Source of the DNA: Rhizaria sp. SCN 62-66
Lineage: Eukaryota
NCBI GenBank assembly: GCA_001724265.1
Contig: MEDY01000190.1
Span: 1-54,937 of the forward strand
DNA length: 54,937 nt
Direction of reading: 5' to 3'
The notes beneath the pieces were generated by a model. The model saw only the letters and a program-made list of their open reading frames with translations. It did no database searches and was not told the DNA's origin. Shown here in pieces: positions 18,406 through 46,742 of the stretch (positions within the stretch are counted from its first letter, which is position 1; each line of letters starts with the position of its first letter). The position numbers and the translations under genes are program-made.

Positions 18406-18892
18406 TGCCGCCTCTGAGCAAGGGTGGACGGTGGGAAGTGCAACGGGTGGCAAGGTGAGAGGGGCGAAGAGAGAATAGGTAAAGCTAGCGTATACATGTG
18501 CCTGTCATGGTAGCATTTTAGATTTATTGCAAACATGTGCGACTATTCATTAGTAGGTCTTCAAATTCTGCACTGACGGTTGTGGTGTGCGAGGAATATG
18601 GTGTCCCGATCGAGCTCTAGATTCGCCCAGGCCATCCAGAAACTTGTCTCGTCACCTTTGTATCATGTCTTGCTCGCCGCGACTGAACTGAATTCAAACA
18701 TAAGCGACACGAATGAACAAATCAAGTTTTCACCCATTAAACTCCATTGTTTTAGTTTGTTTATCTATACCTCCAGTAGTGGTATCTTCACTAATAGTCC
18801 CCACCCAGAAAGTTGCCAAGCCCCCCACTCGCCCGCTTGCCCCGGCCTCTCGCCCCGCCCCACATAGCGGCCCCACGCTCTGCCCGTCCGCC

Positions 18893-21800
18893 ATGCAGCC
18901 TGTGCCCGTGCCCGCCGTTGCAGCGCCGGCTCCATTACGCGTGAAATCGTCGCAGACAACGTGGTCGCCGTCGTCGACGCCCGAGCCGACGCCCACTGCT
19001 GCGGAAACAGCCAGCGCTGCTGCTCCTGCTTCTAATCTCGCTCCCACCTCTGCAGCTGAGACGGTGACTGTTAGTGCGAGCGCCCCGGTGACTGAGTCCG
19101 CGTCCAGCGCGGCTGCAAAGGCGATCGCCGCCATCCCTATGCTCCAGCTCTTCAGCAACAGCAACAGCAACAGCAACTCTCGCCTTAGCACGAGCACGAG
19201 CTCAAATGCCGTGGCGGCGTCAGTGTCGCGGCTCAGGCCGCTGTCCCCGACTCGCCTCATCAGTTGCAACACTTCACTGAGCTCAAATGCAGCGAGCTCA
19301 AACGCGGCGAGCTCTAGCTCTAGCTCTGGTGCGAGTATGGGCTCTAAGGTGCCTGTGCTGCGCTCCCGGTCGCCGCCGACCGCCCCCAACCGCGCCTCCA
19401 CGACAACTCCAGCAACAGCATCAGCAGCAGCAGCAGCCCCAACTAATGCGACTGTGAGCGGGGGCCAGTCGCAGCAAGGCCCCTTTGCGTCGCCGTTCCG
19501 CCACGCCGTCTCCGCGAGCTCGGGCGTGAGCGCCGCCGACCCGGCTGTGGACGCGGTTGTGGACGCCCGCACGGCTTCCGTCATAGGCGCCGGGGTCATC
19601 AGCGCCACTAGCGCCGGCGCCCGCGCCATCCAAACCCCCGCCACCGCGGGCGCACACGCTGCGGGCTCGAATGCGGGTCCCAGTGCGCACGGTACTGTCG
19701 GCTCGCCCCTTCGCGGCCGCGCCCGCGCCCCCGTGTCGGCGGCCGCGGCCGTTGCGGCGGGCGGCGGACTCAGTCGCGCCGCGGGCGTGTTCGGCCCCGT
19801 CACGCCGGTGAAGGTCTTTGCGTCGCCGTCGGGCGGCCACGCGATTTCAGCTGCGAGCGCGAGCGCGAGTGGCAGTGTGAGGCGCGCTCTATCCCCGTCA
19901 GCGTCGGTGTCTGCACTGCGGAGGCCGAGCTCTTCCACGAGGTCCTCTCTCGGCGCATCTGGAACAGCAACAGGGGCAGCAGCTGCGAGGACGCCGTCTA
20001 AGGGGCCAGTGGGCGCCAGCAATCTAAGTACCCCGCAGAGGGCGCCGCGCCCGCAGTCACCTCTACGGGCCACGCCCGGTAGCGCACAGCCACAGTCGCC
20101 CATGCGCGCACAGTCGCCGCCGCCGCGGTTGCAGACGCTGCGCACGAGCACGAGCACACTGACCACGGCAACCTCAGCTGCCAGCGGCGGCGCTGCGGGC
20201 GGCAGCAAAGCCAGGGGCCTGTCGCAGTCGCGCTCGCACGCACAGCTGGCACAGAGCCCCGCCTCCGCCTCTGCCGCCGCCGCTGGTGCTGCTGCTGGCT
20301 CGCAGTTGTTGCGGGCCAAGTCGCCCGGCGCCGCCGCCGCAGCGCGCAACAGCATGAGTATGCGCACGAGTCTCTCTTCTTCATCACTCACATCGCCGCA
20401 CGATGTGCGCGCAACCTCGAACGCTCACGCCAGCCCTAGCTCCAGCACTGCCGCCGGCCCCGCTGCTGCTGCTGCTGCAAGCAGGCGTGCATCCCTCGCG
20501 ACCCCGGCCAGGCGCCCCAGCACCGCTGCCGGTTCGAGAAGCCCTGCTGCTGGCACTGGCGCTGGCGCTGGCAGTCGGCCGCCGAGTCTGCGCATGTCTC
20601 TGTCGTCGACGGCGTTCGCGCCGGCCAGTAGCAGCGGCGGCAGCCACACGGGCGCCCACTCGAGCGCGAACCCGGACCCGAGCTGTAGCCACCCTGTGCC
20701 TGCGGCCTCGGGCGGGAGGCGCGGTGTCAGTACGACCAGCACGCATGTAAGCGGGAATCTAAGTGGCAGCACGCGGTGCACGCTGCCGCGCCCGCAGTCC
20801 CCGCTGCGTTCACAGTCACCCTCTGCGGCGGCCGTGCGCTCTCAGTCTCCGAAACCGGCTGGGGCGGCATCTTTGCGCGCACAGTCGCCGTCGCAGCGCC
20901 CCTCGGCCCAGTCGCAAACTCTGCGCGCGCAGTCGCCCCTGCGGTCTACACAGCAGGCGCTGCGCTCGCAGTCGCCCAAACCGAAGCCTGCATCGACCGC
21001 AGCAGCGACGGCGACGACGACGTCGACGGCGGGCAGGAGTTTTGGCGGCGGCAACAGGCCTCTGTCCCCCACTGCCCGCCCCGGCCCACCGGCGACTCGC
21101 ACCGGTCCGACTGCAGCCCGCCCTGCCTCCGCCGCGACGAGGCCGCTGTCCCCGGGCGCCCGGCCCCTTTCCCCCGCCGCGCGCCCCCCCACTGGCTCTG
21201 GCGCTTATGCGAGCAACGCGACTGCCAAGGCCGGTGCGGCGACGGACGCCAGCGCGTTCCACCACGTGCGCACGCCGAGCCTGGGCTCCAGCGCGGGCAC
21301 GCCGCCCAACATCCCCTGGTCGCACCCGGCAGTGCCCCCCGTGTGCCTCGACCTGGCGCTCGCCAAGCAGGAGGCGTACCTCGCGCCGCGGCCCGCGCCC
21401 GCGCCCAACGCCGCCGCGGCGAACAACAACAACAACAACAACAGCGGGGGCCATGCGAGTAGCAGCAACATTGGCAGTGTGAAGGTCAGCCGCGCCGCCG
21501 CTGCGAGCCCGGGCGTCGGCAGCGCTGGCACTGGCAGTGGCACCGCCGGCGGCGCGACCAACAGCGGCAAAACCGCGGTGACGACTGCCAAGACCGATGC
21601 CGCCGCGGGCGCTGGCGCAACAGCGAGTGTGTTGAGTGGTCAGACGAGCGTGAAAAACACGCCGCACAACGACGGAGACTGCGAGCTCGACCGTGATTGT
21701 GGCGGTGACGGCGAGACTGAGGGCGGCTGTGGGATCGGCCCCCGCGCTCACAGTCACCTCGCCCACGGTGACCTCGCCCACGGTCACTTGGCCCACGGTC

Positions 21801-23590
21801 ACAGCCGGTCGCGCAGCCACGCGAGCGCGCTGGTGCTGACCGGGCCTGCGCTGCGGCTCGACCTGGACAACAAGCGGTCGCCGTGGGCAGTCAGCAACGC
21901 GGCTGTGAACGCGAGCGCCAACCTGAACGCGAGCACGAGGACGAGCGCGGCCAGCAAGAGCAACAGCAACAGCGGCGGCGACGGCGACGCTGGCGTTGAT
22001 GCAACCAACGCGGTCGCTGCTGTGGATGCTGGTGCTGCTGAGTGTAATGGCGGTGATTTTGATCACGCCCACGACGACGAGGCTGCGGCCGAGGCCGAGG
22101 CTGCTGCTGCGGCGGCGGCGCTGGCGGCCGAGGAGGAGGAGGAGGCGAGAAGCCTGCACCAAGCGATGCAGGAGGTCGACGACTACGGCATTCTGCCTTC
22201 CGAAGAGGACGACGACGACGATCATGTCAACGCACATAGTAATGCCGCTGATGTCGACAACAACAACAAAAACGCCGTCACGAACGACAACGATGGCAAT
22301 GTTGGCACGCCTGGCGTCATTGGCGGCAGAGTCGCCGGCGACGTCGACGGCGACCTGGAGCCCCCCGAGAGCCCGATCTTCGTGCCCGCGACCGCGGCCG
22401 CGACGCCGCGACGCACCGCGCGCGGGCTGCCGACGGCGCTCTCGCTGTCGCAGTCGCCGCTTTCGTTGTCGCCGCCGTCAGCGCTGCTGCCGCTGGGGCC
22501 GCCGCACTTGCGCGCGCCGCTACAGACGCAGCCGGAGCAGGACGAAGACGAGGGACTCGAGCAAGCGCAACTGCCGCAGACTCAGTCTCAGACTGAGACT
22601 GCGACCGAAACCCAACCTGAGGCTCAAGGCCCTACTCAAAGCCAGAGTCAGAGCCAGAATCGCTTGCGGTCACCGGCAGCGCGGTCGCTTTCGCTCGCAG
22701 TGCCTAAGTCCCCGTCGGCCGCGTCCGCGGGCGGCTTAACTTTGAAGCAGAGCGGCACCGCGAAGGTGGGTCACGTCAGCGCCGAGCCTGTCGTCGACGT
22801 GAGCGACAACAAGAGCGCGTGCTCCTACGAGATCACTCCGATCATCGCCGACATCGCCCCGGGCGCGAACGCTGTCGACGCGGCGCCTGGTATGGCCGCG
22901 ACGCCAATGTACCCGTCGTTCTCGCAGTCTTTCGCCGGCGAGGACCTCACTCTCGGCATCATTGCGCTCAACAACGGCAACTACAGCTCCAGCGCCAGCG
23001 ATCCTAGCAGCACCAACAGTTCGCAGCTCAAGCCGCGATCGCTTTCGCAATCGCTGACGCACGGTCGCGTCACGGCTGCGTCCACCGCGAGAGCCTCGGC
23101 CGTCAACACGCGCACCGGCAACGACCCTGCAGCTGGCTCTGGCGTGTTTGTGTCCCAGCCTAGCTTTACTCTGACGCCCTCAATCACCTACCCCGCGACG
23201 CCTGACTCACAGGTCTCATTGCAGTCGCAGGGGCAGCAGGGGAGCTCGCGGTCGCCACTGGACAGCTTTCCTTCGTTCGGCGACGGCCAGCTGTCGATGC
23301 TGTACGTGCCCACGCCCACGGTCGGCGACTGGGCCGCGCCGCCGCCGCGGGCCGCTGCGAACAGCACCGGCAGCACCAACGCCAAGGATGCTGCAGTCGG
23401 CGACAGCGACTGCCAAATCAACAGCAAAGAGCCTGCGTCGAGTGCGTCGCCGGCCGATAAGGCGGGCGCTGGCGCGGGGCTGGTCGCGGTGGCGGAGGCC
23501 GACGCGGAGGATGAGGCCGCAGCAGAGGCTGCGGCTGCTGCTGCGGCTGTGCCGACGGCAAGCGCTGTCGCGGCGTCAACAGAGTGCTAA
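18893..23590 (+). CDS. Large Ser/Ala/Pro-rich intrinsically disordered protein with recurrent R-x-(Q/L)-S-P motifs (~1565 aa)
   Basis: Long ORF with coding-like GC-rich composition bounded by AT-rich spacers. Likely start ATG at 18893 (GCCATG). Basic N-terminal half and more acidic C-terminal half. No recognisable folded domain. Ends in TAA. Confidence 0.7.
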   Translation: MQPVPVPAVAAPAPLRVKSSQTTWSPSSTPEPTPTAAETASAAAPASNLAPTSAAETVTVSASAPVTESASSAAAKAIAAIPMLQLFSNSNSNSNSRLSTSTSSNAVAASVSRLRPLSPTRLISCNTSLSSNAASSNAASSSSSSGASMGSKVPVLRSRSPPTAPNRASTTTPATASAAAAAPTNATVSGGQSQQGPFASPFRHAVSASSGVSAADPAVDAVVDARTASVIGAGVISATSAGARAIQTPATAGAHAAGSNAGPSAHGTVGSPLRGRARAPVSAAAAVAAGGGLSRAAGVFGPVTPVKVFASPSGGHAISAASASASGSVRRALSPSASVSALRRPSSSTRSSLGASGTATGAAAARTPSKGPVGASNLSTPQRAPRPQSPLRATPGSAQPQSPMRAQSPPPRLQTLRTSTSTLTTATSAASGGAAGGSKARGLSQSRSHAQLAQSPASASAAAAGAAAGSQLLRAKSPGAAAAARNSMSMRTSLSSSSLTSPHDVRATSNAHASPSSSTAAGPAAAAAASRRASLATPARRPSTAAGSRSPAAGTGAGAGSRPPSLRMSLSSTAFAPASSSGGSHTGAHSSANPDPSCSHPVPAASGGRRGVSTTSTHVSGNLSGSTRCTLPRPQSPLRSQSPSAAAVRSQSPKPAGAASLRAQSPSQRPSAQSQTLRAQSPLRSTQQALRSQSPKPKPASTAAATATTTSTAGRSFGGGNRPLSPTARPGPPATRTGPTAARPASAATRPLSPGARPLSPAARPPTGSGAYASNATAKAGAATDASAFHHVRTPSLGSSAGTPPNIPWSHPAVPPVCLDLALAKQEAYLAPRPAPAPNAAAANNNNNNNSGGHASSSNIGSVKVSRAAAASPGVGSAGTGSGTAGGATNSGKTAVTTAKTDAAAGAGATASVLSGQTSVKNTPHNDGDCELDRDCGGDGETEGGCGIGPRAHSHLAHGDLAHGHLAHGHSRSRSHASALVLTGPALRLDLDNKRSPWAVSNAAVNASANLNASTRTSAASKSNSNSGGDGDAGVDATNAVAAVDAGAAECNGGDFDHAHDDEAAAEAEAAAAAAALAAEEEEEARSLHQAMQEVDDYGILPSEEDDDDDHVNAHSNAADVDNNNKNAVTNDNDGNVGTPGVIGGRVAGDVDGDLEPPESPIFVPATAAATPRRTARGLPTALSLSQSPLSLSPPSALLPLGPPHLRAPLQTQPEQDEDEGLEQAQLPQTQSQTETATETQPEAQGPTQSQSQSQNRLRSPAARSLSLAVPKSPSAASAGGLTLKQSGTAKVGHVSAEPVVDVSDNKSACSYEITPIIADIAPGANAVDAAPGMAATPMYPSFSQSFAGEDLTLGIIALNNGNYSSSASDPSSTNSSQLKPRSLSQSLTHGRVTAASTARASAVNTRTGNDPAAGSGVFVSQPSFTLTPSITYPATPDSQVSLQSQGQQGSSRSPLDSFPSFGDGQLSMLYVPTPTVGDWAAPPPRAAANSTGSTNAKDAAVGDSDCQINSKEPASSASPADKAGAGAGLVAVAEADAEDEAAAEAAAAAAAVPTASAVAASTEC

Positions 23591-24498: not shown

Positions 24499-26029
24499 AT
24501 GGAGCCGGGTCGTCGCCCAAACGGCCCCTCTCCGGCCGCTGCACGCTTTCTACAAGAGCTAGCGCACCGCGACCATCAACAAGCACTTGCCTCTGATGCG
24601 CTGTATAGCTTTAGCGCCCATAAAGAGGCCCGAGACAAGCACGAGGAGGAACGCGTCGCTCGTATCGCGGCCCTCAATCGTCAAAAGCAGCAACACCTTC
24701 GCGAGGTATGTCTCGCTCCCAAACAAATTCATAACAGATCAAGTCGCATAATATTGACCTTAATCTAACCTATATTCCGCTCAATATGCTACTTTTACTG
24801 TAGACCCGCGTCGCGCTCGGTCTGGAGGAGGACGACTCCGCAAACCTTCTCACCACCCCAATGGAGCAAATGCGGGCACAGATGCTGGCCAACCGTGTAA
24901 ATGCGCTTGCAGACACTGATGACGACCGATTTATGCATGTACACGCGCGAGCTGCGGTAGCAGCGCCGTAGCTTACCCCGCAACATCAGCGGAGGCAACC
25001 GCAGCTCCCGGCAGCACAGTCAACACTGGCACATCAACAGCAAGTTCAGCCGCAGCCTCCGCAGTCGTAGCTGCAGCCGCGGCCGCAGCCGCAGTCGGTG
25101 TTGCCCCGGCCTGACAACGGCCCCTTCTCGCCCTCGCGCCTCGAGGCCCGGCGCGCGCGCTCGCTGGCCGCGCTCGCACTTGTCCGTGCAGAGACGGCTG
25201 CCGCAGAGGCCGCCGCCGCTGCTGCGGCCGCAGAGGCCGCGCAGACTGCTGCCAAACAGGCTGCCGCAGAGGCAAAGGCTGCTGCGGCGGAGGCGGAGGC
25301 TGCGGAGGCCGTCGCGGCTGTTGACGCGTCTATCCTGACTCTCCGCGGGATTGAAGGCGCTGGGCATGAGTTCGACTTTGCGCAACCTGACGCGCAAAAG
25401 GGCATCTTCGTCTCGGTTGGCGCCGGCGCCAAGGCAAATACGAACGGTGGCGACACTGACTTGCGCCCAAGCAACACGAATATCAGCGATGTTGCTGGCT
25501 CCAGTGTTGCTGCGACTCAGCACGACCGCGCAATCGGTGCCGGTATTGGCTCTGGCCCTGCAAACAAGAATTACTACGGCGGTAGTCGCCACATTGGTGG
25601 GCATGGCGACTACGGCGGCTACAGTGACAACAGCGGTGGCGAGGACGACGACGAGCTTGTGTCCGCGGGCGCGTACAGCGACGTCAAGCTCTTCCACAAG
25701 AGCGGCGCGGGCACGGCCACTGGCATCGAGAGCGCGGTAAGTGCGACTGGCGTGCACAGTGTGAATCTTGACAACAGCTACTACAACAACAACTCGCACA
25801 TCACAAACATCTCCCACTTGGCGGTTACCATTGACGCTGGAAATAACAAACATGCCATCAATTCATTGCAGGCCAGTGCAAGTAATGGTAAGCATTTGAG
25901 GACAGATCATGCTTCCACTATTGCGGAACAAAGCTTCAGTAGTCGTCGTGTGAACAACGCAGATAGCTCTGATGCACCACTTGTGACTAAAGACCCATGG
26001 GATGCTTGGGACAGTAGCTCTGACGACAG

Positions 26030-26094
<65 letters not shown>

Positions 26095-29000
26095 GCAAAT
26101 CTCGCAACAAAATTACGAATTTACACTCGATTCGCCGTAACAATCGCGACAGCAACAATAACACAATCTTAAACGTCTCTACCTCTGCGAGCAAGAGCGT
26201 CATGACTACTCCCAAAAAGTCTGCTTCGACGGCTGAGTCTGCGGCAGCGCTATTGGTGGCCAATGCAGCGCTAGTTATCGCGTCTCCGCCCCGTGTATGC
26301 CGCGGGTACCCTACGGTGTCACTGCGTGCTCGCGACTTGCAGCAGCATCAGCAACAACAACAACAGCAAAACAACGTCGACAGCACTGACGGCTCTGATG
26401 CGGCACCAGGTAGCAGCGCAGTGGATGCTGTCAAGAAGACTGGTCTGCTGGGCGGTAAAATGTACATTGTGCCGCCGATCAGGAGCAATGCATCAAGCTC
26501 TATCGTGCGCAACTCCAGCAAGTCGCACAACGGGGCCGATGACGATAACTATGGCGATGGCAACAGCGACAGCGATGGTGATGACGCCAGCAGCGACAAT
26601 AGCAATCGCAATAATATCGACACGAATATCGACCACAGTCGCCGCTTTAACTATAATATCTTCAGCAGCAGCACTCGTCGCACGCATGTTGTGGCAGACT
26701 CTGTCGTGAGCTCTGTTTCCGTGTCGAACGCAGGCTCAGTGCACGTGTCTGCGTACGTGCCGCACAGCAACACGCGCCCCCGCCCGATGCCTGCGGTGCC
26801 CAACGGGCCCCTGACGCTCCGCACGATCCCTGTCTTGATGGTGCCGGTTACAACTGCAGGAACGCATCCAGCAACGGTGCAAGACTCAGTGAGCTCACAG
26901 CCTCAACTTCAGTCTCCCGATCAGTCAGCGGGAGTTGCGCGACAGTCATTGCTGCACAATAACAGCTCGTTATCGCGCCGCTACACGGGCGTGCCGTCCC
27001 CGTCGTCGTCGCCCGAGCCGACCGAGGCCGACGTCGCTGCGCTGTATGCGCACGAGGCTGCTGAGAAGCGCAGACGCGAGAGCGCGATTGCGCGCGCTGC
27101 TGAACAGGGGTGCGACGTTGCGAGCACGGTGCGCCCACTAACAAGCGCGGTTAATAACAACTCTGCACAAGCAAGTCAACGTCGCAGCAATAGTGACGTT
27201 GTTGACTCTGTGGGATTTGTGGCACAGAGGAGCAGCATCAGTGTCTCTAAGAACACAGCTGATAGCAGTCAAAGCGCTGCCCGTGTCCACGACCCACTGG
27301 CCGTCAGCATGATGAAGCGCCCCGCTTCGACAGCGACTGCTGTTGGTAATCGCGACAGCGCATACGAAACTGTAACGAATTATAACAGGACTACTGGGCT
27401 AACTACGGTCGTTTTGCCGAGTGAAACACTGTCTGCTAAGGCCGCTGCAACCGTCGCTGCTTCCGCCGCCGCCGCTGCCGCTGCTGCCGAGGCCTTGCGC
27501 AGGCAGTATGAGGACGAGGACGACCTTGACAGCCATTTAGCGCCGCGCGAGCGTCGCAGCTACAAGCGCGCGCAGGCACTACGCGAGCAGCAGCAGTTGC
27601 GGGAGCAACAGGCGCAGCAAGAGCTGGAGCGTGGGAAGCAGCAGCGGCAGCTTGAGCAGAAGCTCGACAACTTTCTCGATAGTTGTGACCAGGAGCGCCG
27701 CCGCGAGCCGAGCAAGCAACATCCGTGGAGCAATAGTGGCAACGGTGTCGTCGCCACGATATGGACCGACCTCACGAACAGGGCCCGCGCCGAGGCCAGG
27801 GCCGCAGCCGACGCGAAGTTTTTCTTGCAGACCGACCCTTTGCACGACCTCGGGCCCGAGTCCGAGGCCGAGGCCGCTGCCGACGCCGCGCTGGCCGAGG
27901 CCAAGCGCTCCCTCGCGCTCGCCGCGCGCCGCCGGCTCCGGGCCGAGCGCGCGCGCGCGGCGGACGACGCCGACAGGAGGGCTGCGGCGGCGATCGAGAG
28001 CGTCATGACCGGCAGCGGGGCCAGGGAGGTGCTCGATATGTCAAGCCGCGCGGTCGATAAGTCAAGTCGCCACAATGACGAGTCGCATGCTGGCGTTGCT
28101 CATGTTGAGGACGACCGAAACACGAGTGGTCACAGTGCTAATATGAAGAGCGTGTACGAGCATGTGACGCGTCTCAGGACAACGGAGGCAACGTCGGGGC
28201 TTTATCGTGAATACTCAAAGCGGACGTTTGTGACTGCCGCTGATGACGATCGTACTGATGCTGCGCACGGCTATAACGATGATATTACCCGGAATAATAA
28301 CGCAGGCGACAGCGTGCGTGCTCACGGTGACTCTCGGGTAGGTGTTTGTGGTCACTCTCAACGCCACGGTCACGCTGACTACGACGGAAGTGACGACGAA
28401 CATGATGACCACGACGACGATGACGCTGCTTCTGATCGTGGCGACAATACTCGTAACCTTAACCACTTAGAAGATCTTCTAGTTTATGGCCACGCCTACG
28501 GAACCGGCGACGGCGGGAGCAGCGGCGAACGTGACTTCGACAATGACGGTGACGCCGCATACGACAACTGCTATGTCCACGAAGGTGACGGCGGCGACTC
28601 TATGGGCGAGTATGCCGCCGGTGGTGTCGGTCGTCCTCACAAGGATCCCAACTACAGCGGCAACGGCAACGGCAACCCTTACTATGATGACGGCTCCGAC
28701 GGCGAGTTCAACGACCACGATGACTGCATTGAAGGCGACTACTCCGAGGGTGAGGGTTATTACTACGAAGGCGACGGCGGGGAAGGAGACTATGAGCTTG
28801 ACGACAGCAGCGGGTACGTCGTTGGCGATAGAGGGAGCGCAACTTACTATGACGACGACGACGACGACGACAACGCCTATCCGGATGCTACCCATAGCCG
28901 CGCGACCCACAACCGCGATGCCTACGCTCACGATCCTCGCAGACACTATCGCTATAACCAAGGCAACCACAACACATATCGCGGGTATAGCAGCAGCCGT

Positions 29001-30533
29001 AGCAACGACAACATTGCTCGCGGCAAGGGCTTCACTGTCACCGTCGACAACGACAATGATTACGATGATAACGGAGTCAATAGTGGCGACAACAACAACA
29101 ATAACAACAATCCAAACTTTAGCGGTGACGGTGCGAACGCGCGCAACGACGACAACCACGTCCGTGACCGCAGCAGCAGTGACGATGACGGATTCTATGC
29201 GATCGACGGAAATCAGAGTGGCAACGCGACGGTGTGCGACGAGTCGGACGATGACAGCGATGACTTTAGTGCATCTAATAGTTATCGCAGGATTGACAAC
29301 AGCCGCACCACGTCTCAGACACAAACGCAGGCCACTCAGACGCAATCCCGCACGCAATCGCAGAGAACCACTGAAACCCAGACTCAAGCGCGCGCCCACA
29401 CACAGGCCCAAGCTTACACTCAAACCCTGAGCCAAGCTCAGAGTCAGTCTCAGACGCAGACTGACGGCAAGGTTCAGTCAGAAACACAGCCACAGTCGCA
29501 GAGCCGGAGTCAGCCACGCGGCCGCCGGTCGCGCCGCCGCGGCCTGCAGACGCTGCTGCTGGCGCCGCCGCGGCACTGGCCGGGCGGGCGCGTGCCGCCG
29601 GAGCTGTTGTCCTTTAACAGGGCGCGGAAGCGCGCGGTGGACCTGGCGATCCGCACGCGCGCGCACACGCACGGCCGCGGCGTGACGGGCGGGGGCGGGG
29701 CACGCCGCAGCAGTCACGTCCAGGGCGGCGGGAGCATGCCGGAGACTGAGGCTGCGGCGACAGCGACAGAATGCCTGAACAGCAGCACCACATATGGCAG
29801 CCCCCGGAAGACTGGTTCGTCTCCTGAGAGATCTAAGCAACGCTTGCCGAGTAACGATGAGTCCATCAACCGCAGCTACTCCCGGGGTGGACACTGTCAC
29901 TCCAACAATGCGAGCTTCAGTGACGCCGGCGCGGCGTACAGCCGCTCGCCCCGGCGCGGCGGCAAGGCTGGCAATGGCCATGTGCCGACTGTGCCGATGA
30001 CCGTCGCCGTGACCACGCAAGCAGCAGACACAGGCGCAGGCGCAGGTGCGAAGGCTGCAGTGAGCTTGGGCTATTCTAACACGAGCGCGCGACCTGTTTG
30101 GCGCGTCTCCGGCGGCGTCGGCTCCCACAACAACAGCATCAACCTCAACAGCAACGGTGTTAAGAGCAATGGCGCCGGTGTGAATAGCAGCGCCAGCGCT
30201 GCGGCCGGCCTCGGCGGCGGCTACGGCTACGGCCACGGCGGCGGCGGCGCGGCGGGCGCCGAGATGGGCGTGCTGACGCGCGTACTCGTCAATACGGGCC
30301 GCAAGGTCGGCGTCGTGAATCACAAAAGCAGGCGCGAGAGACAGCGCGCGCGCGAGCAGCAAGAGTTGCAGGAGATGCAGGAGTTGTATGAGATGCGGCA
30401 ACTGCAGGAGCAGCAGGAAGAGATTGAGCGCGAGCGGCTGGAGCAGTGGCAGCGCGAGGAAGAGGAGGCGTTCAGCGCGGTGCTGGACATCAGCGACGCC
30501 CCCGTGAATGTCTCGCACGAGAAGCGCGCGTAA
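24499..30533 (+). CDS. Large low-complexity protein of unknown function with coiled-coil segments; exons 24499-24705, 24804-30533 (~1978 aa if two in-frame TAGs are read as sense)
   Basis: The intron GTATGT..CTAAC..TGTAG (24706-24803) puts exon 2 in the frame of the 1811-aa ORF. The only interruptions are TAG at 24969 and 25068, within a Gln/Pro-rich stretch. Ends in TAA. Confidence 0.72.
26031..26093 (+). repeat. (AAC)n microsatellite encoding poly-Asn, with one ATC interruption
   Basis: Directly visible tandem AAC run inside the CDS. Confidence 0.95.
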
Positions 30534-32849: not shown

Positions 32850-33370
32850 GTGCCCTCTGCAAGCGCGATGGGATGTCACGTCAGTAAGCTGGCGCCTTCA
32901 TGGTCGCTTGTGGTGAGTGCTCAGTAACGCATGCCTGCGAGCAGTGCATTGTTCAGCACAGTCTTGTTTTGAAAGGGCTTAGTAGAATAAGTGTATATAT
33001 ATTATAAGCGTTAGTCAGCATTGTGTGACATAGTGCGATGCTGGCCCTGCACATCTTTGTTTCAGCGAAATACATAATGTATCATTTATCGTGACACTTG
33101 CTGTGGCGGCTTCGAGGGGGGTGCTGGCTTGGGTGGCTTAGCCAGAAAAAAATCAAGATGAGTTCTGATAGACACATCTGTATAATACGAATGATGTTCG
33201 AACTATAAAAACATTTCGCATATTATAATGCATATTTAAATTAAGATTTTCTGAAAACAAAATTGAGACTCACTTGTGCCCCTTTTAATTCATGCCCGTC
33301 ATCAGTTCGACAACCAGTCTCGTCCCTTCTCCCAACCCCTCTACCTCGTCTCCCTAGCAACTACAGCTTA

Positions 33371-36300
33371 ATGCAAACGCCTGCGCGCGTGCGCCCTGCT
33401 GCGGGGCCGCTGCAGACCGCTTTTAACGGTCCCCGCGCCTCGGCTATGTCGCCCTCCGACTCCTCCCCCCACACGCCCTATACAACAGCAACTGCCACGA
33501 GCTCAGCCGCTGCAGCAGCAGCCCGCAACGGTCCCGCCCCCGGCGGCCCGGCCGCGCCTCCCGCCGCGATTCTCTCCCCGTCGTCTCTTTCCGCGCGCGT
33601 GACCACGTCGCACTTCCCGACCCCGATGGAGCTGGCGCGTTCGGGCGCGCTCGTCTTCCCGCCGGTCCCGCCCTCTGAGCGCGCGCTGTGGGCATCGACG
33701 CCGCTCGCCAAGCTGCGCGAGTCCGAGGCCGCGCAGCGCGCGCAGATCACGGCCAAGCGCCAAGAGCTGCGCTCGCTGGTCACGCGCTGTTTCCGGCAGC
33801 TTTTGTCGTCCGCCGACACGATCATCGCGATGGACGGCACCGCCACCGCGCTGCACGAGCGCATCTCCAGCCTCGACGCGCTGCTCAACAGCATCGACAG
33901 CTCACTAGCTGTCGACGGTGCCAGCGGTGATGGCGCCGGTGCTGGCGCGCTTGACTCCGCCTCAGCCTCCGCGGCGGCCTCGTCCGCTGCTGCCGCGGCG
34001 ACCGCTGCCGCGACCGCGTCCGTGACCGCGCTGACCGGCGCCGTGTCCTCTGTGTGGGCCGCGCTGCGCGGCGGCGACGAGCTGGAGGCCGCCGTAGGGT
34101 GCTTTGAGGCCGTCGCGCTCTACACTGCGGCGGTCAACGCCGCAAACAACGTCAACACCAAGAACACCCCGAACGCACCAGACAGCAAGACGGTGAGCAC
34201 GCCTGATACTACTGTTCTGAATGGCTCGTTGTTCGTTGAGCAAGCGAACGCGGCGCTGGCGCTGCTGCTGGCGCACGCGCCCGCGCTCACGGCCGCCGCC
34301 GCGCAGCGCACGCTGGCGCGCGCGACCGCGGGTCCCGACGCGCTCGCGAGGGCCACGCTGGCGCATTCACTGGCCACCGCCGCCGCCGCCGCTGCCGGCA
34401 AGACCGCCGCTGCCGCCGCCGCCGCCTCGGCGAACGCGAGCGACGCAACGGCGACTGGCAGTATGCTGCCGTTCACGTTTGGCAGTGGAAGCGACGACTG
34501 CAGTGCGAGCGCGAAACAGCAGCAGCAACAGGCGGTGCTGTCGTTTCTGAGCGCGCGGCTCGGCGTTGCGCGCACCGCCTTGGACGCGGCAACCACCGCT
34601 CTGAACGGCGCTCCTGGTAGCGCCGCCGCGAGTGCGCGTGTGCGAGTGAGTGAGTCGGTGCGCGTGCGCATCGTCACGCACGCGATCGCCACAGCGGTTC
34701 AGGCCGCGAACACGGCCTTCGCGCTCACGCCGATGCTTGCGCTGCCCTACAACATTAGTGTCGCTGGCAACAACAACAACAGCAACAGCAACAGCAATAG
34801 CAGTGCGAGTAGCAATGACGTCTCGTTCAAGTCACTCGAGGCACGCACCGCTGACTTGTGTGTGATGCGTCCTAACTTCGCGCGCGGCTTAACTTTAGCT
34901 CTCACCCGCGCCCAGTCGCAGTCGCAACAGGCATTAGTTCTTAGTAACGCTCGCGCGACAGCGAGCCACACGGCTCCGTGGCTGCTGGTGCCGCTTTCAC
35001 TGCCTCCCGCGTCTCTGCCCGCGACCGTGCTGCCCCTGTGGCGCCTGACCGAGGCCGCGCTCACCCCACGGCTTAACTTCCTCATCGGACTGCTGACAAC
35101 CGCGAAGGAAGTCGCCGCGGCGCGCTCGGCGCTTCTCACCGCATCAACCGCATTTAGCGCGAGTCATAGCCCGGACACGAGCTTGGTGCCTGCAAACTCT
35201 GCTCCTGTTGCGCCTGCGAGTGCCTCTCTGTCTCACCGCTGCCCTCTCACGGGCGTCACTGCTTGGGCCGGCACCCCCGCCACGTGGGCCGCCGCCGCCG
35301 CCGCCAACCTTGGCCCTTCAGCCGTCGCCGCCACCGCCGCTGCCGCCGCCACGGCCAGTCAGCCCGCTGGCCCGGTGGTCTCGCGCGCGCCCTCGTGGCC
35401 CGACGCCTGCGCTGAGGCGCTGGGGGCCCGCGTGGGCGCCGCAGCCGAGGCCGTGGCAGGTCGGCTGGGCGAGCGCGTGCGCGCCACGATTGCCGTGTTC
35501 ACGGTCACCGGGCTCACGGTCACCGCCGGGCAGCGGGACGCTTACACCGCGGCCGAGAATGTAAGGGGCGCGGGTGGGAGCGCGCCTGCGTATAGCTGGA
35601 TGTCGCAGGCTGACTGTGGCATCACCTCCGCGCTCTGCACGGCCCTCTCCATCTACTACAATAACAACGCCAATAGCGGCCTCAACGGCTCCGTGGCTGC
35701 TGGTGACAGTGCCATCGCGACTGCGGCCGCTGTCGCCGCCTTCAGGGCCGCGCGCGCCGCCGACCGGGCCCGCGACCGCCTCCGCGACCGCGCCCGTGTC
35801 CGGTTCACCAATGCTGCTGCGAGTGCCGACGCGACCGCACTCACAGTTGTCTCTCGTTCTCACAGTTAGAATCTACAGAATCTGAATCAGAGTCACAAGC
35901 GGCACACTGCAGCGGTTGTGGCTGCCGCCGCCGCCCGCGCCCGCGCTCGCGCGCGCGCCGCCGCTGCGTCCATTGCGTTCGCGCGCCACGTGTTCTCGCT
36001 GTTGGGCGTTTGTGACGGCTTTTTGACGCAGAACCCGCTGGGCCTGACCGTGGCGGAGGCAGCCGCCGCGGTGGTTGCCGTCGCGGGCCGGCGGGCCGGC
36101 GAGGGGGTGACTGCGAGCGGCACGGACAAGGCGGCTGTGAGCGGCAGCAAGGGCAAGAGCAGCGGTAAGAGCTCGAAGAATAAGGGTGTTAATCCCGACG
36201 CAACGACTGCTAATCACGCGTCTGTCGTGTTCTTCTTGTCTCTGCTCGCTCTGTTCACGGAACAGCAACAGCAGCAGCAGCAACAGACCGGATTTAGCTC

Positions 36301-38890
36301 GAGCACGACGGCGATTAATGCTGCGGGCGGTAATCGTCCTCCGCTGCTGTCAACAACGCTCTCGCACCACGGGCGCGTAACGGCTGTTTTGCGCACAGTC
36401 AGTGCCGCGATTGACGTCGCTGTGCTCGACGCCGCGCGCGACGCGCTCCTGCTCACGCGCCCTTTCGCTGGTATGAGTACCCCCTTAGACGGCGCCGGGT
36501 ACTACTGCAGCGTAAGCCGCCTTGCGTCGGTCTCGGCGCTGTGCGTGGCCGATGTCGCCAGCAAGGTCACCAGGGCTCTCGCGACCGCAGTGACCGTGGC
36601 CGCGGCGGATGCGGCGGCGGCTGTGACCGCGGTCACTGCTGCTGCAGTGGCGAGCGGCGCCCTGGACTGTCCCTCTTTGGCCCCCAGTCATAACAGCCTT
36701 TACACCGCGAGCAATAGCAACGGCGCGAGCACAAGCGCCAGTGCCAATGTGTGCGATAGTGCGAGCGTTGTCGCTCTGAACGCTGCGCTCTCGTCGAACT
36801 CACTGCTCCGCGGCTTAGCTTCGGAACAGCGGGGCGGCCTACCTGCGGCGCAATTCGGCCGCGCGTGCGACGCCGCTTCTGCCACGACGCTGCTGCTCTC
36901 GCGCGGCCTAACTTCGAGCTCGCGCGCCACAGCACTGCTGCTTCTGGTCGCATGCCCCGCCACCGAGAGCGCGAGTCCTCGCGCGGGCTCGGATGCGGCT
37001 GTGGCCGGTCTCGCGTGCGCCCACGTGTTTGCGCTCGAACTACTCAACTCGGCCTCGGTCGCCGCAACGGCCGCCGCGAACGCTGCCGCCGCGGCTGTTA
37101 CCTCTGCAGCCGCTCAGGACGGCACGAGCGTTGCCGCTGTTGCTGCTCGTAATAGCTGTGTGAGCGAGAGCTCTGTGAGCGCGAGTGCCGGCGCTGCGAT
37201 CGCGCCCGCACAGGCCGCCGCGGCCGCGCTGCGCAGCCACTGGCCGATGTCGCACGCGTCGTTCACTCTCTCCGCGCTTGCTGCCAGCGCCACCACGGAT
37301 AGCACTGGCGTGACGGCCTCAGCCTCTGCGGCTGCGGTGACCGCGGCTGCTGCTGCGGGCGCGGCCGCGGCGACGGGCGCTTGGAGCCGCGCGGCAGCTG
37401 CCGCCACTGCGGCCGCCTTCGGTTCGGTTCTCAACACAGTTAAGACCAACCCTAGCAGTGTGTCCATGAGTGAGTTTGGGCTTGAGTGTGCACGCGTTGT
37501 CGCTGCTGCCGCCGCCCGCCGCCGTGCGCGCGCATGGGGCGCTGTCTCGGGCGCAAACAGCGCTGACAGCGGCAGTCTTAATAGTGACAGTCTTAACAGC
37601 GGCAGTCTAGGCACCGAGAGCAGCCGTTGCAGTGAAGCGATCGCGCTTGCGACCGCTCTCTGTGCTGTCGTCACCTCATCCACAGGGAATCCCTCTCAGC
37701 AACAGCAGCACGTCACCGTGGGTGCTGCCTATGTGTTGCTCCATGCGCTCCCAAGCTCACAATCGCAGGCTCAGGAACTGGCTGTGCCCACCGAGCTTGC
37801 GAGCGCGGTGGCCGCCCTCGCAACTGCGCTCAGCAGCACTGGGAACGCCCCTGCGATGACTCCCCGTGAGCTTGTCGCTGCTCTCGCCCACTTGCATGCG
37901 CGCTCGCAGTCGCAGCTTCCGGCTCAGTCGCTGGCCCAGGCCGCCTCTGCTCTCGCGATTCTGCTGCTCTCGCCTGATCGCGTGAGCCCTGCTGCGCTGG
38001 CATCGCAGGGAGACAGCAACACGAGTCGCGTGAGCGTCATTCGCGGCCCTCAGCTCGCTGAGTTGCAGTCTGTCTTCACCAGCGCAGTGACCTCATTTGC
38101 GAAACCCCCTCTCAGTCACTCGAATAACCACAATAACAGCGGTGCGAACAGCATTGCTGTTGTCGCAAGTGCCAGCGCTGTCGCCCGCTCGCTGCAGCTG
38201 CCCACACACATCTACGCCTCCGCCTTTGCCGCCGCGGCCGCTGCAAACAACAGCAGCGCGGGTGCGGTAACCAGCGGCTCGAAGCCCGGCGCGGTCGCCG
38301 CCGCAGGCAAGAGCGGCAGCGGCAGCGTTCTCGGCGCCAGCGGAGCGCGCAAGCAGAGCGGCGCTGATGGCAACGGCAACGACAACGGCGACGATGACGA
38401 GGACGATAACTGGGGCGTCAGCGCGAGCATCGGCGGCAGCGGCGTGTTTTCGCTCGCCGCGGCGGCCGCGAGCCGCAGCAGCAGCGGCGCGGGCAGCAGC
38501 GCGGGCCGCGGCAGCAGCGCCAGCGGAGGCGGCAGCGCCAGCGGTATGGCTGGTCCGGAGGCCGCGGCGGCACTGTTGCGGCGCCACGCGACCGCGGCGA
38601 CCACCAGCAACACAAACAGCGCCGCCGCCGCAGCCGCAGCTGGCTACTCGGGTGGCGATGGCAGAGGCAGGGCGAGGGACGGCGGCGGCGCCCGGCGCGG
38701 CGGCGCGGGCTCTAAGGGTGTCGAGGCCGCGGATGTAAGTGCCCAGCAGACTGTGAGCAGCGTTGGTGAGTCCGTTGCGCAGCACTTGGCCAGCTCGCTG
38801 CAGAGCGCCAAGGCCACGGCGAGCTCGTTCCTGGCCGCCAGCGACGGCGCGACGAGCATGCTGGCCTCGTGGGGCCTCACGTTCGACTAA
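33371..38890 (+). CDS. COG1: COG1-like (Vps51/Vps67 N-terminal domain) Golgi tethering subunit; a single ORF of ~1839 aa if TAG at 35867 is read as sense
   Basis: TPLAKLRESEAAQRAQITAKRQELRSLVTRCFRQLLSSADTIIAM matches the COG1/Vps51 N-terminal pattern (K-x-x-ELR-x-x-V...R-x-L-x-x-x-ADTI-x-x-M). The 868-aa and 990-aa ORFs are in the same frame, separated only by one TAG, with no AT-rich intron. Ends in TAA. Confidence 0.68.
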
Positions 38891-40022: not shown

Positions 40023-41139
40023 TTAATCCTTCTTGGTCTTGACAGCGCCGCTGCTCTTGCCCTTGCCGCCCTCGGCGCCGCCGTGCTTCTTGGTGTAGAA
40101 GTTGCCGAAGAGCGCGAGGAGGATGAGCATGTCGGTGACCTGGAGGACCTTGCCGGTGAACCAGTAGGGGGAGAAGAAGAAGCAGTAGACGGCGTGGACG
40201 AGGTTCGAGAAGAACTGGGTCATCTGGAACATGGTGAGGTACTTGCCCCACCAGAGGAACTTCTTGCGGCCCTCAGGGGACTTGATGAACACCGTCAGCA
40301 GGTAGTAACTGAACAAGAACAAGAAAGGAGAGTAGAATGATGATGAATGCAGGAAAGTGAGTAATTGAGCACAAAGATAAGTTGGGATAAAAACCAAGCA
40401 TGACATTGATATATAGATGCATATACATTCCAGGTTCATCAAGCATTCGCGAGGATATGCGTTGACGCTGGTTTCCGTAACAGCAGAGTTGAGTTGCAAA
40501 AGATGCCGATATTATGTTATAGAAGAGGACGTACGTGTACATGACCACGTGGACCCAGGAGTTGAAGGCAATGCAGAACCAGGCGTCGCCGCCAGGGGCG
40601 CAGCGGGTGACGAGCCAGAAGATAAAGCCGGTGCTAGTGTGGTGAAAGACGTGGAGGAACGAGACCTGGCGCAAGTTGCCCTTAATGAGCATCAGGAAGG
40701 TGTCGATGAACTCGTAGTACTTGGAGATGTAGAAAACGTAGAACACCCAGGCAATGTCGGCGTCGCGCTCCATGATGTAGGCCTCGCCCCAAAGGGTGTA
40801 GTTGTTCTTGAAGACGTAGTAGATGGTCATGACGCCCATCCAGAGCGAGAGCAGCGCGAGGAAGGCGTTGTGGACGATGGCGACCATGCGCAGCACGGGG
40901 CCGTCGGGCTTCTTGACAGCGTTGGGGTTCTGGGTGAACATGATGAGCGGGTAGAAAATGGCAAGCACGCCGAGGTAAAAGACGTTAAAGAGGATGAAGG
41001 GTGTGGCCGAGTTGACGAACCACCAGTCCTTGGTGAGGGGAGTCTGCGTCATGTCGGCGCCGAGGGAAGTGAGGAAGTTGATCACGGCCGGGGAGACAAC
41101 GGCGTCGAGCGCGTTGTAAGACGCAACCAGCGAGTCCAT
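40023..41139 (-). CDS. ELO/GNS1-SUR4 family fatty acid elongase, PUFA (delta-6-like) type; exons 41139-40535, 40308-40023 (~296 aa)
   Basis: Motifs HNAFLALLSLWM, FYISKYYEFIDT, QVSFLHVFHH (His box), NSWVHVVMYT|YYLL, LWWGKYLTMFQMTQF and LFGNFY. C-terminal KTKKD dilysine ER-retrieval signal. Intron GTACGT..CAG is in frame. Ends in TAA. Confidence 0.95.
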
Positions 41140-42176: not shown

Positions 42177-44204
42177 ATGACCGGCGGCGCTCTCGCGAAA
42201 TCGGCCGTGGGACTGCTCTCGGTCACAGTCCTCCTTGCTGTGCTTTCGGCAACGGCCACGGCAACAGCCACAGCTACAGCAGCCGCCACAGCAGCCGCTG
42301 CGTCTGCGGAGACAGCTCTGTCGGCGCTTATTCCGTCCAACACGCAGGCCGCCGCGTCCATCGCGGCCGTGGCTGACGCCGAGGCCGCCGCCACGTCGTG
42401 GTGGCCCCTCATTCGCGTCATCATCGCGTCTACGCTCACCGCCGTGGCGGCGGGGCTCGGCGCGCTGCCGTTCTTCTTCGAGCACTACTGCGGCGGCCGC
42501 AATGGCCGGAACAACAACAACAAGGCGAGCCACAGCAACACGAGTCGTGGCGCTGGAGGCAGCCTGCTTAGTGCCAACTCAAAACAGGGCTCATCTATCA
42601 AGTCTTTGTCTCTTAAGACATCTGACACGGCGGCGAATTCGACAACAAACATCAGCAACGGCCACAACAGCTCTCCTCTGGCGCAGCACCTCAGCGCCAC
42701 CCTGCCCCCCAGCGCGAGTGTAAGTGGCGCCTCTGCACATCAGGGCGGCGCAAGTACCAGTGCCGCGCCGCTGGTGAGGTATTCGACCCCGATCGCCGCG
42801 GGCATGATGCTCGCCTGCGCTGTGATCCTCACGATCGAGTCGTATCACCTCGCCCTTGACAGCAGTCTCAGTAACGTCGGTCACGGCCCCTCAGCTCACG
42901 GTCACTCTGCTCACGGTCACTCCGCGGGTGACCCAGCGGCTGGCGATATTCTGAGTCAACAGGCCGGTTCGGGCCAGATGTGGGCGGTGAGCCGTGCTGT
43001 CGGCATCGTTGTCTTCGGCATCCTACTGGGTATTGGCATGGTGATCGGTTCGCAGAAATTGCTCGACAGCATTGGCCACGGCCACGGCCACGGCCACGGC
43101 CACGGCCACGGCCACGGTCATAGCCCTCATGGACACAAAGGGGGCCAGAGAGGCCGCAAGGGTCACAGCCCTCCCGGGCAGCAGCGCAAGACTGCGAGTA
43201 CGAAGAAACAGGTGACCTCCCCAGCGCCTACATTGACGACTGGCTCACCATTGTCTCTGAACAATAACGGCAGTCTCCGGAGCAATACGACCGTGCTGGA
43301 GTGCCCCACAGATGCCGCGCTGGCCGCCGTGGCACACGCCGCCGCGACGCCGGACGCCGACGGCAGTGGCCACGGAGCAGTGGCGACAACGACAGCGTAC
43401 ATGGCGAGCACAAGCTTGATTCCGACAGAGCTTGTGTACAATATCTCACAAAACGGCAAAAACAGGGACAATAAGCTCCTCTCTCTGAGTGACGATGACG
43501 ACGACGATGACGGTCAGACGTACTACAGCTCCAATAACGGCGCCAACAACAACAACTCGACTGGTTTCAGCTCTCTTACGATCAAAAACACCACCAGCAG
43601 CAAAGCTAGCTCACAACTCGCGTCACAGAAGCCCGCCAACAACGACTCTGACCACGCCAGCGACAGCCACAGCGCTTCAGATAGCGACAGCAGCGACGAA
43701 GACGAAGACACCGCCGCGGGCGGCCTGCTGCTGCAGCTGCAGTCAGACATCGCGACCGACGGCGCGACCCGCCGCGCGGCTTTGCTGATCCTAGTCATGT
43801 CGCTTCACTCGTTCGCCGAGGGTGTGTCGCTGGGCGTCTCGTGGGCCGACTCGGCGCACCTGGGCTCCTTCATCTCGCTGTCGCTGGCGCTGCACAACGT
43901 GCCCGAGGGCCTTGCCGTCGCGGCGGTGGTAGTCCGCCGCGGCTCGTCGCCCTGGGCCGCTGCGCTCTGGGCCGTCGTCTCCTCCCTGCCGCAGCCGCTC
44001 GCCGCCGTGCCTGCGTTCCTCTGCGTCTCGCTCTTCTCCTGGCTCACCACCGTCGGGCTTGCCTTCGCCGCGGGGGCGATGCTCTGGGTGCCCGTCACGG
44101 AGCTGCTGCCGGAGGCGCTGGAGGAGCTGCCCAGGAGGACTGTGGTCACGGTAACGGCGGCCACGGCGGCGGCCATGTTCGTCGTCTCGCATTTCCTGGA
44201 GTGA
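42177..44204 (+). CDS. ZIP-family (GufA/ZIP11-like) zinc/divalent metal transporter (~675 aa)
   Basis: Motifs TAVAAGLGALPFF, AAGMMLA, SLHSFAEGVSLGV (TM4), LALHNVPEGLAVA (TM5), SSLPQP, FAAGAMLWV and ELLPEA. His-rich loop and hydrophobic N-terminal signal. Ends in TGA. Confidence 0.93.
   Translation: MTGGALAKSAVGLLSVTVLLAVLSATATATATATAAATAAAASAETALSALIPSNTQAAASIAAVADAEAAATSWWPLIRVIIASTLTAVAAGLGALPFFFEHYCGGRNGRNNNNKASHSNTSRGAGGSLLSANSKQGSSIKSLSLKTSDTAANSTTNISNGHNSSPLAQHLSATLPPSASVSGASAHQGGASTSAAPLVRYSTPIAAGMMLACAVILTIESYHLALDSSLSNVGHGPSAHGHSAHGHSAGDPAAGDILSQQAGSGQMWAVSRAVGIVVFGILLGIGMVIGSQKLLDSIGHGHGHGHGHGHGHGHSPHGHKGGQRGRKGHSPPGQQRKTASTKKQVTSPAPTLTTGSPLSLNNNGSLRSNTTVLECPTDAALAAVAHAAATPDADGSGHGAVATTTAYMASTSLIPTELVYNISQNGKNRDNKLLSLSDDDDDDDGQTYYSSNNGANNNNSTGFSSLTIKNTTSSKASSQLASQKPANNDSDHASDSHSASDSDSSDEDEDTAAGGLLLQLQSDIATDGATRRAALLILVMSLHSFAEGVSLGVSWADSAHLGSFISLSLALHNVPEGLAVAAVVVRRGSSPWAAALWAVVSSLPQPLAAVPAFLCVSLFSWLTTVGLAFAAGAMLWVPVTELLPEALEELPRRTVVTVTAATAAAMFVVSHFLE
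43074..43121 (+). repeat. (GGCCAC)n hexamer repeat encoding (Gly-His)8 in the ZIP loop
   Basis: Directly visible tandem repeat. Confidence 0.95.
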
Positions 44205-45505: not shown

Positions 45506-46742
45506 ATGCGTGCATTTATTGCCCTGCTGCTTCTTGCGGTGGTTTTCGTTTCTCATGCGGTACGTCTCTCGCCCATTTACATGACCTCTTTTGCTCGTCC
45601 AGAGGAGGTCCTCTTCGCTGCTCTGTTCGACCGCCACCAAACTGCCCTTCTGGGGCGTCCCCCAATCCTGTTCTTGGAACTGCCATTAATTTGCCACAAT
45701 ACTACAAGCTCTGTCTATCCTGTCAACGCCCCCCTGAACCGTCTGTCTTGTCTTTGCGTCACCATTTGCCCTGCAAAGTCGACTTCCTCTCACCGTCACT
45801 TCTCGTCTCTCCCTCCCTCTTTCCCCCTTTGTTTCTCGCTTCCCACCGCTTCCCATTCGCCCCTACCCACTCCACACCCTCCCCATTATATTGCACACCA
45901 CGCTTTGCCCCATCACTTGCTATTGGTTTGCCTCTCACGCATAGAACGCTGTCCATGAGGAGCTAAGTAATGAGGTCAGTGACCCCACCTCGTTCGCCGA
46001 GCTTGACTCGGAGTACGCGATGGAGGTCGACGCCGAGGCCGAGGCTGAGGCTGAGGCCGAGATTGCGCCGTTCAACGACTGGGAGACGGCCACCCGCAAC
46101 GCGGACCTCAAGCGCCGCACGCGCCCCGTGTTCAAGACGGGCGGCAAGTTCGACTCGCTCGACTGGGGCAACATCCCCTCTGCCGACACCATGCCCGGCT
46201 CCCTCGTGCGCCTCACCAACGCCCCTGGCGCGATGCCCGCCTTCAGCGAGGACATCCTGCCTAAGTCACTCTTCCCCTCGAAGAAGTGCCCCAACCCGTC
46301 GCAGGCGGCCGAGGTCAAGGCGTGGGCCAAGCTCACCCAGCGCATCAAGCGCGGCAAGGCCACCATCATCAAGTACACCAAGTGGGCCACCGCCGCCCGC
46401 GCCGCGCTCAAGAAGATCGCCACCCAGGCCCGCACCACGAAGAACAACGTCAAGAGCCTGAACCAGGCGATCCGCGGCATGAAGTACCAACGCAAGCAGC
46501 TCGTGAAGCGCCTCAAGAGCTACAAGCTCAAGGCGCAGCTCGACCGTGCCGCGCAGCGCATGATGGAGATCCAGGGCATCAGCCGCCAGATCGGCGGCTA
46601 CGACCGCTCTGCCAAGGCCAAGAAGGCCGGCGTTGCCTCCGAGAAGCCTGCCAAGAAGGCCGCTGCCAAGAAGGCTGGTGCGAAGAAGACTGGTGCGAAG
46701 AAGACTGTCGCCAAGAAGGCTGCTCCCGCCGCCAAGTTCTAA
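45506..46742 (+). CDS. Secreted-type protein: signal peptide, acidic EA-repeat pro-region, basic coiled coil and Lys/Ala-rich tail; exons 45506-45559, 45945-46742 (~283 aa)
   Basis: Exon 1 encodes MRAFIALLLLAVVFVSHA. The phase-0 intron GTACGT..CATAG is in frame with the 240-aa ORF. Strong codon bias (AAG, GCC) suggests high expression. Ends in TAA. Confidence 0.85.

Follow-up and report, generated by a model that had tools for sequence, protein, structure and literature searches.

Locus and gene structure

The window analysed here is the whole of a 54,937-nt stretch of DNA from Rhizaria sp. SCN 62-66 (contig MEDY01000190.1, positions 1 to 54,937 of the forward strand). On its plus strand, positions 33371-38890 hold a gene with a COG1-type N-terminal domain, hereafter the COG1-like gene, which is interrupted by an in-frame TAG codon at 35867-35869. 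This TAG is a real genomic feature. It lies within a single gene, of which it is not the normal end, and outside any canonical intron, and the host does not regularly use TAG as a sense codon. The explanation that is tentatively favoured is a recent CAG-to-TAG nonsense allele that has become fixed in the sampled populations.

The stop-free stretch upstream of the TAG (33245-35869, plus strand) comprises 874 codons from stop to stop. Within it, the upstream part of the gene (33371-35866) begins with the first ATG at 33371 and counts 832 codons up to, but not including, the TAG, with a guanine-plus-cytosine content at third codon positions (GC3) of 0.77, and its 832-aa product has an identical counterpart in the protein library. 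The downstream stretch (35870-38890, plus strand) shares the frame of the upstream one. Its 1006 codons (35870-38887) are free of stops, have GC contents of 0.66, 0.64 and 0.74 at codon positions 1, 2 and 3, respectively, and are followed by a terminal TAA at 38888-38890, after which the DNA is AT-rich (GC 0.37 over 300 nt). None of the Pfam families matched the downstream part.

Two open reading frames (ORFs) so long that share a frame lie far beyond what chance would provide. The first 201 codons after the TAG hold no stop in the frame of the gene, against six and nine in the other two frames, and the first in-frame ATG after the TAG stands at 36473-36475, 201 codons downstream. The GC content of the 300 nt after the TAG is 0.70, compared with 0.37-0.49 after nine of nine real stops in the window, and the composition of the tail stays of the coding type, with GC3 above GC2. 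Because of the high GC content behind it and the distance to the next in-frame ATG, the TAG is not a normal gene end, and 33371-38890 is one gene. A preliminary description of the locus had stated that both ORFs are in frame with continuous coding composition, and that the downstream one lacks a nearby ATG; both statements are borne out, as is the sequence that it quoted around the codon. The ORF sizes given there (868 and 990 aa) do not agree with the measured ones and are superseded by them.

In the immediate context, AGT is followed by the two 9-nt units TAGAATCTA and CAGAATCTG, and these by AAT CAG AGT. The surrounding patch (35852-35892, plus strand), which encodes SRSHS*NLQNLNQSH, has the lowest GC content of the gene (0.39 in a profile smoothed over 41 nt), is rich in pyrimidines and contains several AG dinucleotides. 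The TAG sits in a hydrophilic, low-complexity linker between two stretches rich in Ala and Arg.

Homology to COG1

The only detectable homology of the gene lies at 33680-34162 on the plus strand (residues ~104-264), which corresponds to the Vps51/Exo84/COG1 N-terminal domain and the next conserved COG1 block. Pfam family PF08700 matched residues 110-178 above its gathering score (30.9 bits against a cut-off of 24.2, E 2.9e-7). BLASTP returned COG1 proteins of an orchid (E 7e-12) and of Clydonella (E 1e-10), both of which match the N-terminal region alone. An alignment of 23 COG1 sequences, with amoebozoan, plant, chytrid, Capsaspora and animal sequences among others, was used for two profile searches; hhalign aligned it to residues 104-264 with a probability of 97% over 147 columns, and hmmsearch reported a domain at residues 105-265 (i-E 3.4e-20, Z=1). 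With the same alignment and programs, neither residues 265-832 nor residues 834-1839 gave anything above shuffled or reversed controls.

The preliminary description had called the gene COG1-like. The label stands for the ~160 N-terminal residues that match, and it is carried by those residues only. A search of the read-through protein against COG1 with a hidden Markov model, which had been proposed as a check, was run, and the match confined to residues ~104-265 says nothing about homology past the TAG. The failure of homology in the tail is uninformative, because residues 265-832, which lie upstream of the TAG, are likewise without signal. The N-terminal domain and the block that follows it fit the 23-sequence COG1 profile. 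The gene differs from the aligned COG1 proteins in its length (~1840 codons, against ~900-1290 aa) and in that the conserved C-terminal COG1 blocks are detectable nowhere in it.

Searches for relatives gave little beyond the gene itself. In the protein library, its own product was the sole match to the COG1 N-terminal domain at E <= 1e-10, with no second strong one. An exhaustive phmmer search with residues 1-1200 of the read-through protein returned the 832-aa product and four weak N-terminal matches, and no orthologue. When the tail was searched against the ESM Atlas, neither the scores (0.78 at most) nor the TM values (0.28 at most) provided a lead.

The TAG in DNA and RNA data sets

Four sequencing runs were compared with the window as assembled contigs (Logan). 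They are designated X3, X4, X6 and X7 in the following; X6 is a polyA RNA library, and X7 is labelled as RNA but flagged as 'probably DNA'. A contig of 2919 nt from the DNA run X3, which belongs to a different study, spans 35418-38336 with no differing letter and no gap. The preliminary description had envisaged reads with CAG at the site; the X3 contig is identical to the reference with TAG. No variant or indel at 35867 is listed in any of the four runs, and the single variant listed over the whole gene is T>A at 38771 in X7. In the exhaustive protein search, the 832-aa protein identical to the product ending at the TAG was recorded from seven contigs; proteins of 1459-4165 aa that match the upstream half were not found, which is weak evidence against a longer, uninterrupted version. 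The TAG is therefore not an assembly error, and in samples from at least two studies the allele appears to be fixed. There is a hint that the 2025 strain (X4) also carries it, in the form of a bin depth of 5.68 over 35669-36335 with no variant row, a figure that reflects coverage at the level of bins only.

The tail is present in at least one RNA library. A contig from the polyA library lies on 36773-37071, and X7 contigs lie on 37242-37509 and 38680-38881. Among the RNA contigs listed, none bridges the TAG.

The 9-nt repeat

The two 9-nt units at 35867-35884 on the plus strand, TAGAATCTA (35867-35875) and its neighbour (35876-35884), are identical at seven of nine positions. They differ by T or C at position 1 and by A or G at position 9; the latter difference (CTA/CTG) is synonymous, both codons encoding Leu. 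Similar pairs are frequent. When 9-mers that match the next 9-mer at seven or more positions are counted, 3.7% of the 12,491 scored codons of the window start one and 11.8% lie inside one, and 47 such pairs, that at the TAG among them, occur within the COG1-like gene. Tandem Repeats Finder (minimum score 30) reported no array over the TAG.

The tandem duplication seen in the preliminary description thus exists, with its synonymous difference, and it exceeds chance only weakly. It is a plausible product of slippage, and it is weak evidence for the meaning of the TAG, because pairs of equal quality are common in these low-complexity genes. The further step from the alignment of TAG with CAG to a decoding as Gln is not supported, as a C-to-T nonsense substitution in one copy leaves the same pattern.

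Readthrough and bypassing as alternatives

The first alternative to be weighed is functional readthrough, in which one mRNA would yield the 832-aa protein and, at some rate, a protein of 1839 aa. A near-cognate Gln, Tyr or Lys would be placed at the TAG, and selection on the long form would keep the tail open. The tail of 1006 codons is indeed intact and of coding-type composition, a contig of the polyA RNA library maps to it, and the linker position of the TAG is one where any residue should be tolerated. Readthrough is promoted elsewhere by motifs such as CARYYA and UGA-CUAG; here, the TAG is followed by AAT CTA, with A as the +4 base, and no known readthrough-promoting context is found. Nor does a stable RNA structure lie downstream: the 141 nt of 35855-35995 give z = +1.34, and 188 of 200 shuffled sequences equal or better their fold. 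Usual readthrough tails are also far shorter than ~1000 residues. Programmed readthrough in viruses and cells, for example in the mammalian cases of PMC4132726, resembles the present case in having an in-frame, coding-type ORF directly after the stop, and differs from it in the stimulatory context or structure that is missing here; moreover, the extension of ~1000 residues seems to have belonged to the gene from the start and not to have been added to it. On balance, functional readthrough is a serious though rather unlikely explanation.

Ribosome bypassing in the style of gene 60 of phage T4 was considered and rejected. The AGT at 35864-35866, directly before the TAG, recurs exactly 24 nt on at 35891-35893, and a small hairpin can be drawn between 35866-35870 and 35881-35885, which gives a superficial likeness to take-off and landing sites. 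The recurrence is taken as coincidence, AGT being a common codon (150 of 12,575 codons), and translational bypassing is not known for nuclear genes.

Introns

Seven introns are visible in the window. They are located at 2342-2535 (194 nt, donor GTATG), 3846-3983 (138 nt), 15355-15494 (140 nt), 16052-16200 (149 nt), 40309-40534 (226 nt), 45560-45944 or 45559-45943 (385 nt) and 53542-53739 (198 nt), the last six with the donor GTACG. The joint of the 385-nt intron is present in an X7 contig. All seven donors thus read GTA[CT]G and all lengths fall within 138-385 nt; GC content is 0.33-0.39 in six of them and 0.54 in the 385-nt intron (measured over 45559-45943). The introns at 3846-3983, with an in-frame TGA at 3886 and the acceptor TTAG, and at 53542-53739, with an in-frame TAA at 53614, have lengths that are multiples of three, so that their flanking exons resemble one ORF split by a stop; across the former, the PDZ_3 profile continues from positions 3-68 to positions 71-145, which confirms that intron.

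These two introns are the nearest parallel to the COG1-like gene within the window, as they too place a stop between two in-frame ORFs, with a pyrimidine tract and a YAG nearby. An unconventional short intron that removes the TAG has therefore to be weighed. The candidates with GT and AG in frame are 35846-35869 (24 nt), 35846-35878 (33 nt), 35846-35890 (45 nt) and 35865-35912 (48 nt), and further ones are 35798-35869, 35798-35878 and 35798-35890 (72, 81 and 93 nt), 35823-35912 (90 nt) and 35796-35912 (117 nt). The patch at 35852-35892 is the strongest GC dip in the gene and also has its lowest GC3, and its pyrimidine tract is followed by CAG, TTAG and TACAG as at the 3' ends of real introns, TTAG being the very acceptor of the intron at 3846-3983. 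Windows of 24 codons with a GC3 of 11/24 or less make up 2.5% of the coding windows; they form 21 regions in the window analysed, one of which, the TAG patch, holds a stop. The pyrimidine fraction of the patch is 0.68-0.72, against 0.80-0.84 in two real introns.

It is on the donor side and in length that the candidates fail, only the acceptor side being intron-like. The two introns with in-frame stops measure 138 and 198 nt, with GC contents of 0.33-0.36 and GTACG donors, whereas the TAG patch extends over ~40-60 nt without such a donor. No GTA[CT]G donor is available for an intron over the TAG, and among the donors that could be joined in frame to an AG behind it (35796, 35798, 35823, 35846, 35849 and 35865) none has A at +3. 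The window's ~37.7 kb of coding sequence stays in frame without any short intron, and no joint near 35846-35912 is found among the joints listed for contigs of the two RNA-labelled runs, X6 and X7. No canonical intron covers the TAG. A micro-intron is unlikely because of the misfit of donor and length and because the coding sequence of the window needs no short intron, and unconventional short introns of any of the lengths above are held to be improbable. The preliminary description had set micro-introns of 24 and 33 nt far below the introns of this DNA, for which it gave 98-430 nt; they are poor candidates, the sequence at 35846 starting with GTTGT and the visible introns measuring 138-385 nt.

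A longer intron at 35561-35869 or 35561-35878 (309 or 318 nt) was also tried, since the GTAAGG at 35561 is the sole GTA-type donor within 310 nt of the TAG. It was rejected; the stretch that would be removed is strongly codon-periodic, with a GC3 of 0.77-0.87 against a GC1 of 0.40-0.47.

Use of TAG in the window

In-frame stops were sought in 14 coding segments, representing ~13 genes and 12,575 codons, and the TAG of the COG1-like gene is the only one. The same codons include 393 CAG, 436 CTG and 79 TTG. With TAG as a neutral synonym for CAG, used in the ratio of TTG to CTG, ~71 TAG codons would be expected; one is observed, and the Poisson chance of one or fewer is ~1e-29. TAG is hence not a regular sense codon in this host, and TAG=Gln as part of a regular code is not supported.

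Terminators were counted at 4546, 4782, ~15.1 kb, 23588, 30531, 32847, 38888, 40023, 44202, 46740 and 47179. These ~11 gene ends, one of which rests on an intron model, comprise eight TAA, three TGA and no TAG. In this small sample, the heavy use of TAA and the lack of TAG are seen despite a coding GC3 of ~0.75-0.9. Even if TAG had a share of 20% among terminators, none in 11 would be expected ~9% of the time. The window contains no tRNA gene.

An alternative in which TAG is, or is becoming, a sense codon, perhaps for Gln, through, for instance, weak suppression by a tRNA or poor recognition of UAG by eRF1, would have TAG avoided as a terminator and the occasional in-frame TAG read. The terminators without TAG and the alignment of TAG with CAG in the repeat are in keeping with it. 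Precedents exist among protists; according to PMC5304391, nuclear code changes of UAG only are found in the rhizarian exLh (UAG=Leu) and in Iotanema spirale (UAG=Gln), which keep UAA and UGA as stops. The COG1-like gene shares with them an in-frame UAG, and the few genes seen here use UAA and UGA alone as terminators. The numbers are very different: for exLh and Iotanema spirale, PMC5304391 counts 384 UAGs across 71 genes and 204 across 126 genes, and the protists known to have reassigned UAG show 1.6-5.4 of them in frame per gene, as opposed to one in ~13 genes here. With so large a deficit of in-frame TAG, no tRNA gene in the window, and terminator counts that a TAG share of 20% would still yield ~9% of the time, a sense or near-sense TAG is very improbable. 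The related idea of a host in which the reassignment of UAG is at an early stage or still ambiguous, so that UAG is avoided as a terminator and read usefully, plausibly as Gln, to give a COG1-like protein of 1839 residues, is scarcely more probable.

Editing of the mRNA, or a division into two genes, as improbable alternatives

Restoration of a sense codon by mRNA editing, either from UAG to UIG (Trp) as in sexual-stage filamentous ascomycetes or from U to C, has in its favour that A-to-I editing in fungi prefers the triplet UAG and rescues genes with premature stops there (PMC11156358 and PMC10776026); it is most improbable here, as the host is not a sampled fungus (the best named matches of its dihydroorotate dehydrogenase, DHODH, are to animals, oomycetes, a foraminifer and a green alga, at 46-55% identity), the A of the TAG is placed by the predicted fold in a stem and not in a hairpin loop, and no RNA/DNA difference at 35867 is found among the rows listed, in which no RNA contig crosses the site. 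That the locus consists of two separate genes, or that the TAG stems from an assembly or sequencing error, is hardly credible: prokaryote-type gene callers did give two proteins, the 832-aa product and an Atlas record starting at residue 17 of the tail, but an AT-rich spacer is lacking, the next ATG is 201 codons away, the frame continues unbroken, and an identical independent DNA contig and a product common to seven contigs are at hand.

Interpretation

The best reading of the COG1-like gene is that of a recent CAG-to-TAG nonsense allele in a slippage-prone, low-complexity linker, fixed in the sampled populations; we prefer it with some reserve, at a little under an even chance. A C-to-T transition would have turned CAG into TAG in one copy of a short repeat of the slippage type. 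Under standard decoding, the protein would then stop after 832 residues, with the sole recognisable COG1 domain retained. The intact tail of 1006 codons would mean either that the lesion is young, or that low-level near-cognate readthrough still yields some full-length protein. We infer the direction of the mutation, the youth of the lesion and the fate of the tail from these features. The disabling lesion itself is present in population DNA, as the X3 contig is identical at the site and the 832-aa product is recorded from seven contigs.

The gene resembles known nonsense alleles and young unitary pseudogenes in that one in-frame stop interrupts a long ORF that is intact otherwise; the stop is one transition away from the common codon CAG and situated in a mutation-prone, low-complexity repeat. 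It differs from them in that no second lesion is found and in that the allele is apparently fixed across at least two studies.

Several observations weigh against a nonsense allele. The lack of a second lesion in the 1006 codons of the tail would also fit a tail that is still translated. The polyA-library contig on part of the tail indicates that the mRNA is not obviously eliminated. The set of ~11 gene ends with no TAG has the pattern of UAG-reassigned lineages, which is a weak sign with 11 genes, and the pyrimidine tract with CAG and TAG at the patch resembles the 3' ends of host introns. Finally, no relative of the gene that could show the ancestral codon at the TAG site was found in the protein searches.

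As a plain nonsense allele, the TAG would be an ordinary case: a COG1-like protein naturally truncated but still with its N-terminal assembly domain, in a host without a close sequenced relative. The case would carry weight only if the tail is translated; it would then give either a readthrough product of unusual length or the first sight of a lineage whose UAG is ceasing to serve as a stop.

Host and other features of the window

The host is GC-rich, with long genes that are mostly free of introns; coding GC3 is ~0.75-0.9, and spacers and introns are AT-rich. The stretch was found in 12 data sets from seven studies of bioreactors, wastewater, activated sludge and microbial fuel cells, many of them with small shares. 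Other genes of the window encode a leucine-rich repeat protein of 2710 aa, a class-2 DHODH, a ZIP transporter, an HtrA/Nma111-like protease, an ELO elongase and an ADH-like reductase. A JGI record contains an identical copy of the DHODH; two relatives (P0008 and P0009) are 66-67% identical, the next ones 52-54%, and the named matches, in the groups listed above, ~46-55%. A metagenome scan with this neighbouring DHODH found no relative, and a second scan, with a 3-sequence alignment, gave 80 loci at 39-48% identity, none of them close, which were not used. The host is an uncultured eukaryote without a close sequenced relative. An Rfam scan of the window gave no match, and the long ORFs at 18704-23590 and 25071-30533 matched no Pfam family.

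Gene orientation changes at ~12.9-18.7 kb; genes lie on the minus strand to the left of ~13 kb and at 15.1-18.5 kb, and mostly on the plus strand from 18.7 kb on. Spacers of 0.5-1.5 kb have a GC content of ~0.35-0.45. In the ZIP transporter gene, a CTG-repeat stretch at 42894-42925 has a very high summed contig depth (880 in X4) and a CTG insertion variant; it is probably low-complexity sequence common to other organisms and not a signal of copy number. The gene at 45945-46739, which follows the 385-nt 5' intron, has a GC3 of 0.90 and looks highly expressed; it contains an acidic repeat of Glu, Ala and Asp at ~46023-46062, at which contigs of all four runs often break or loop back.

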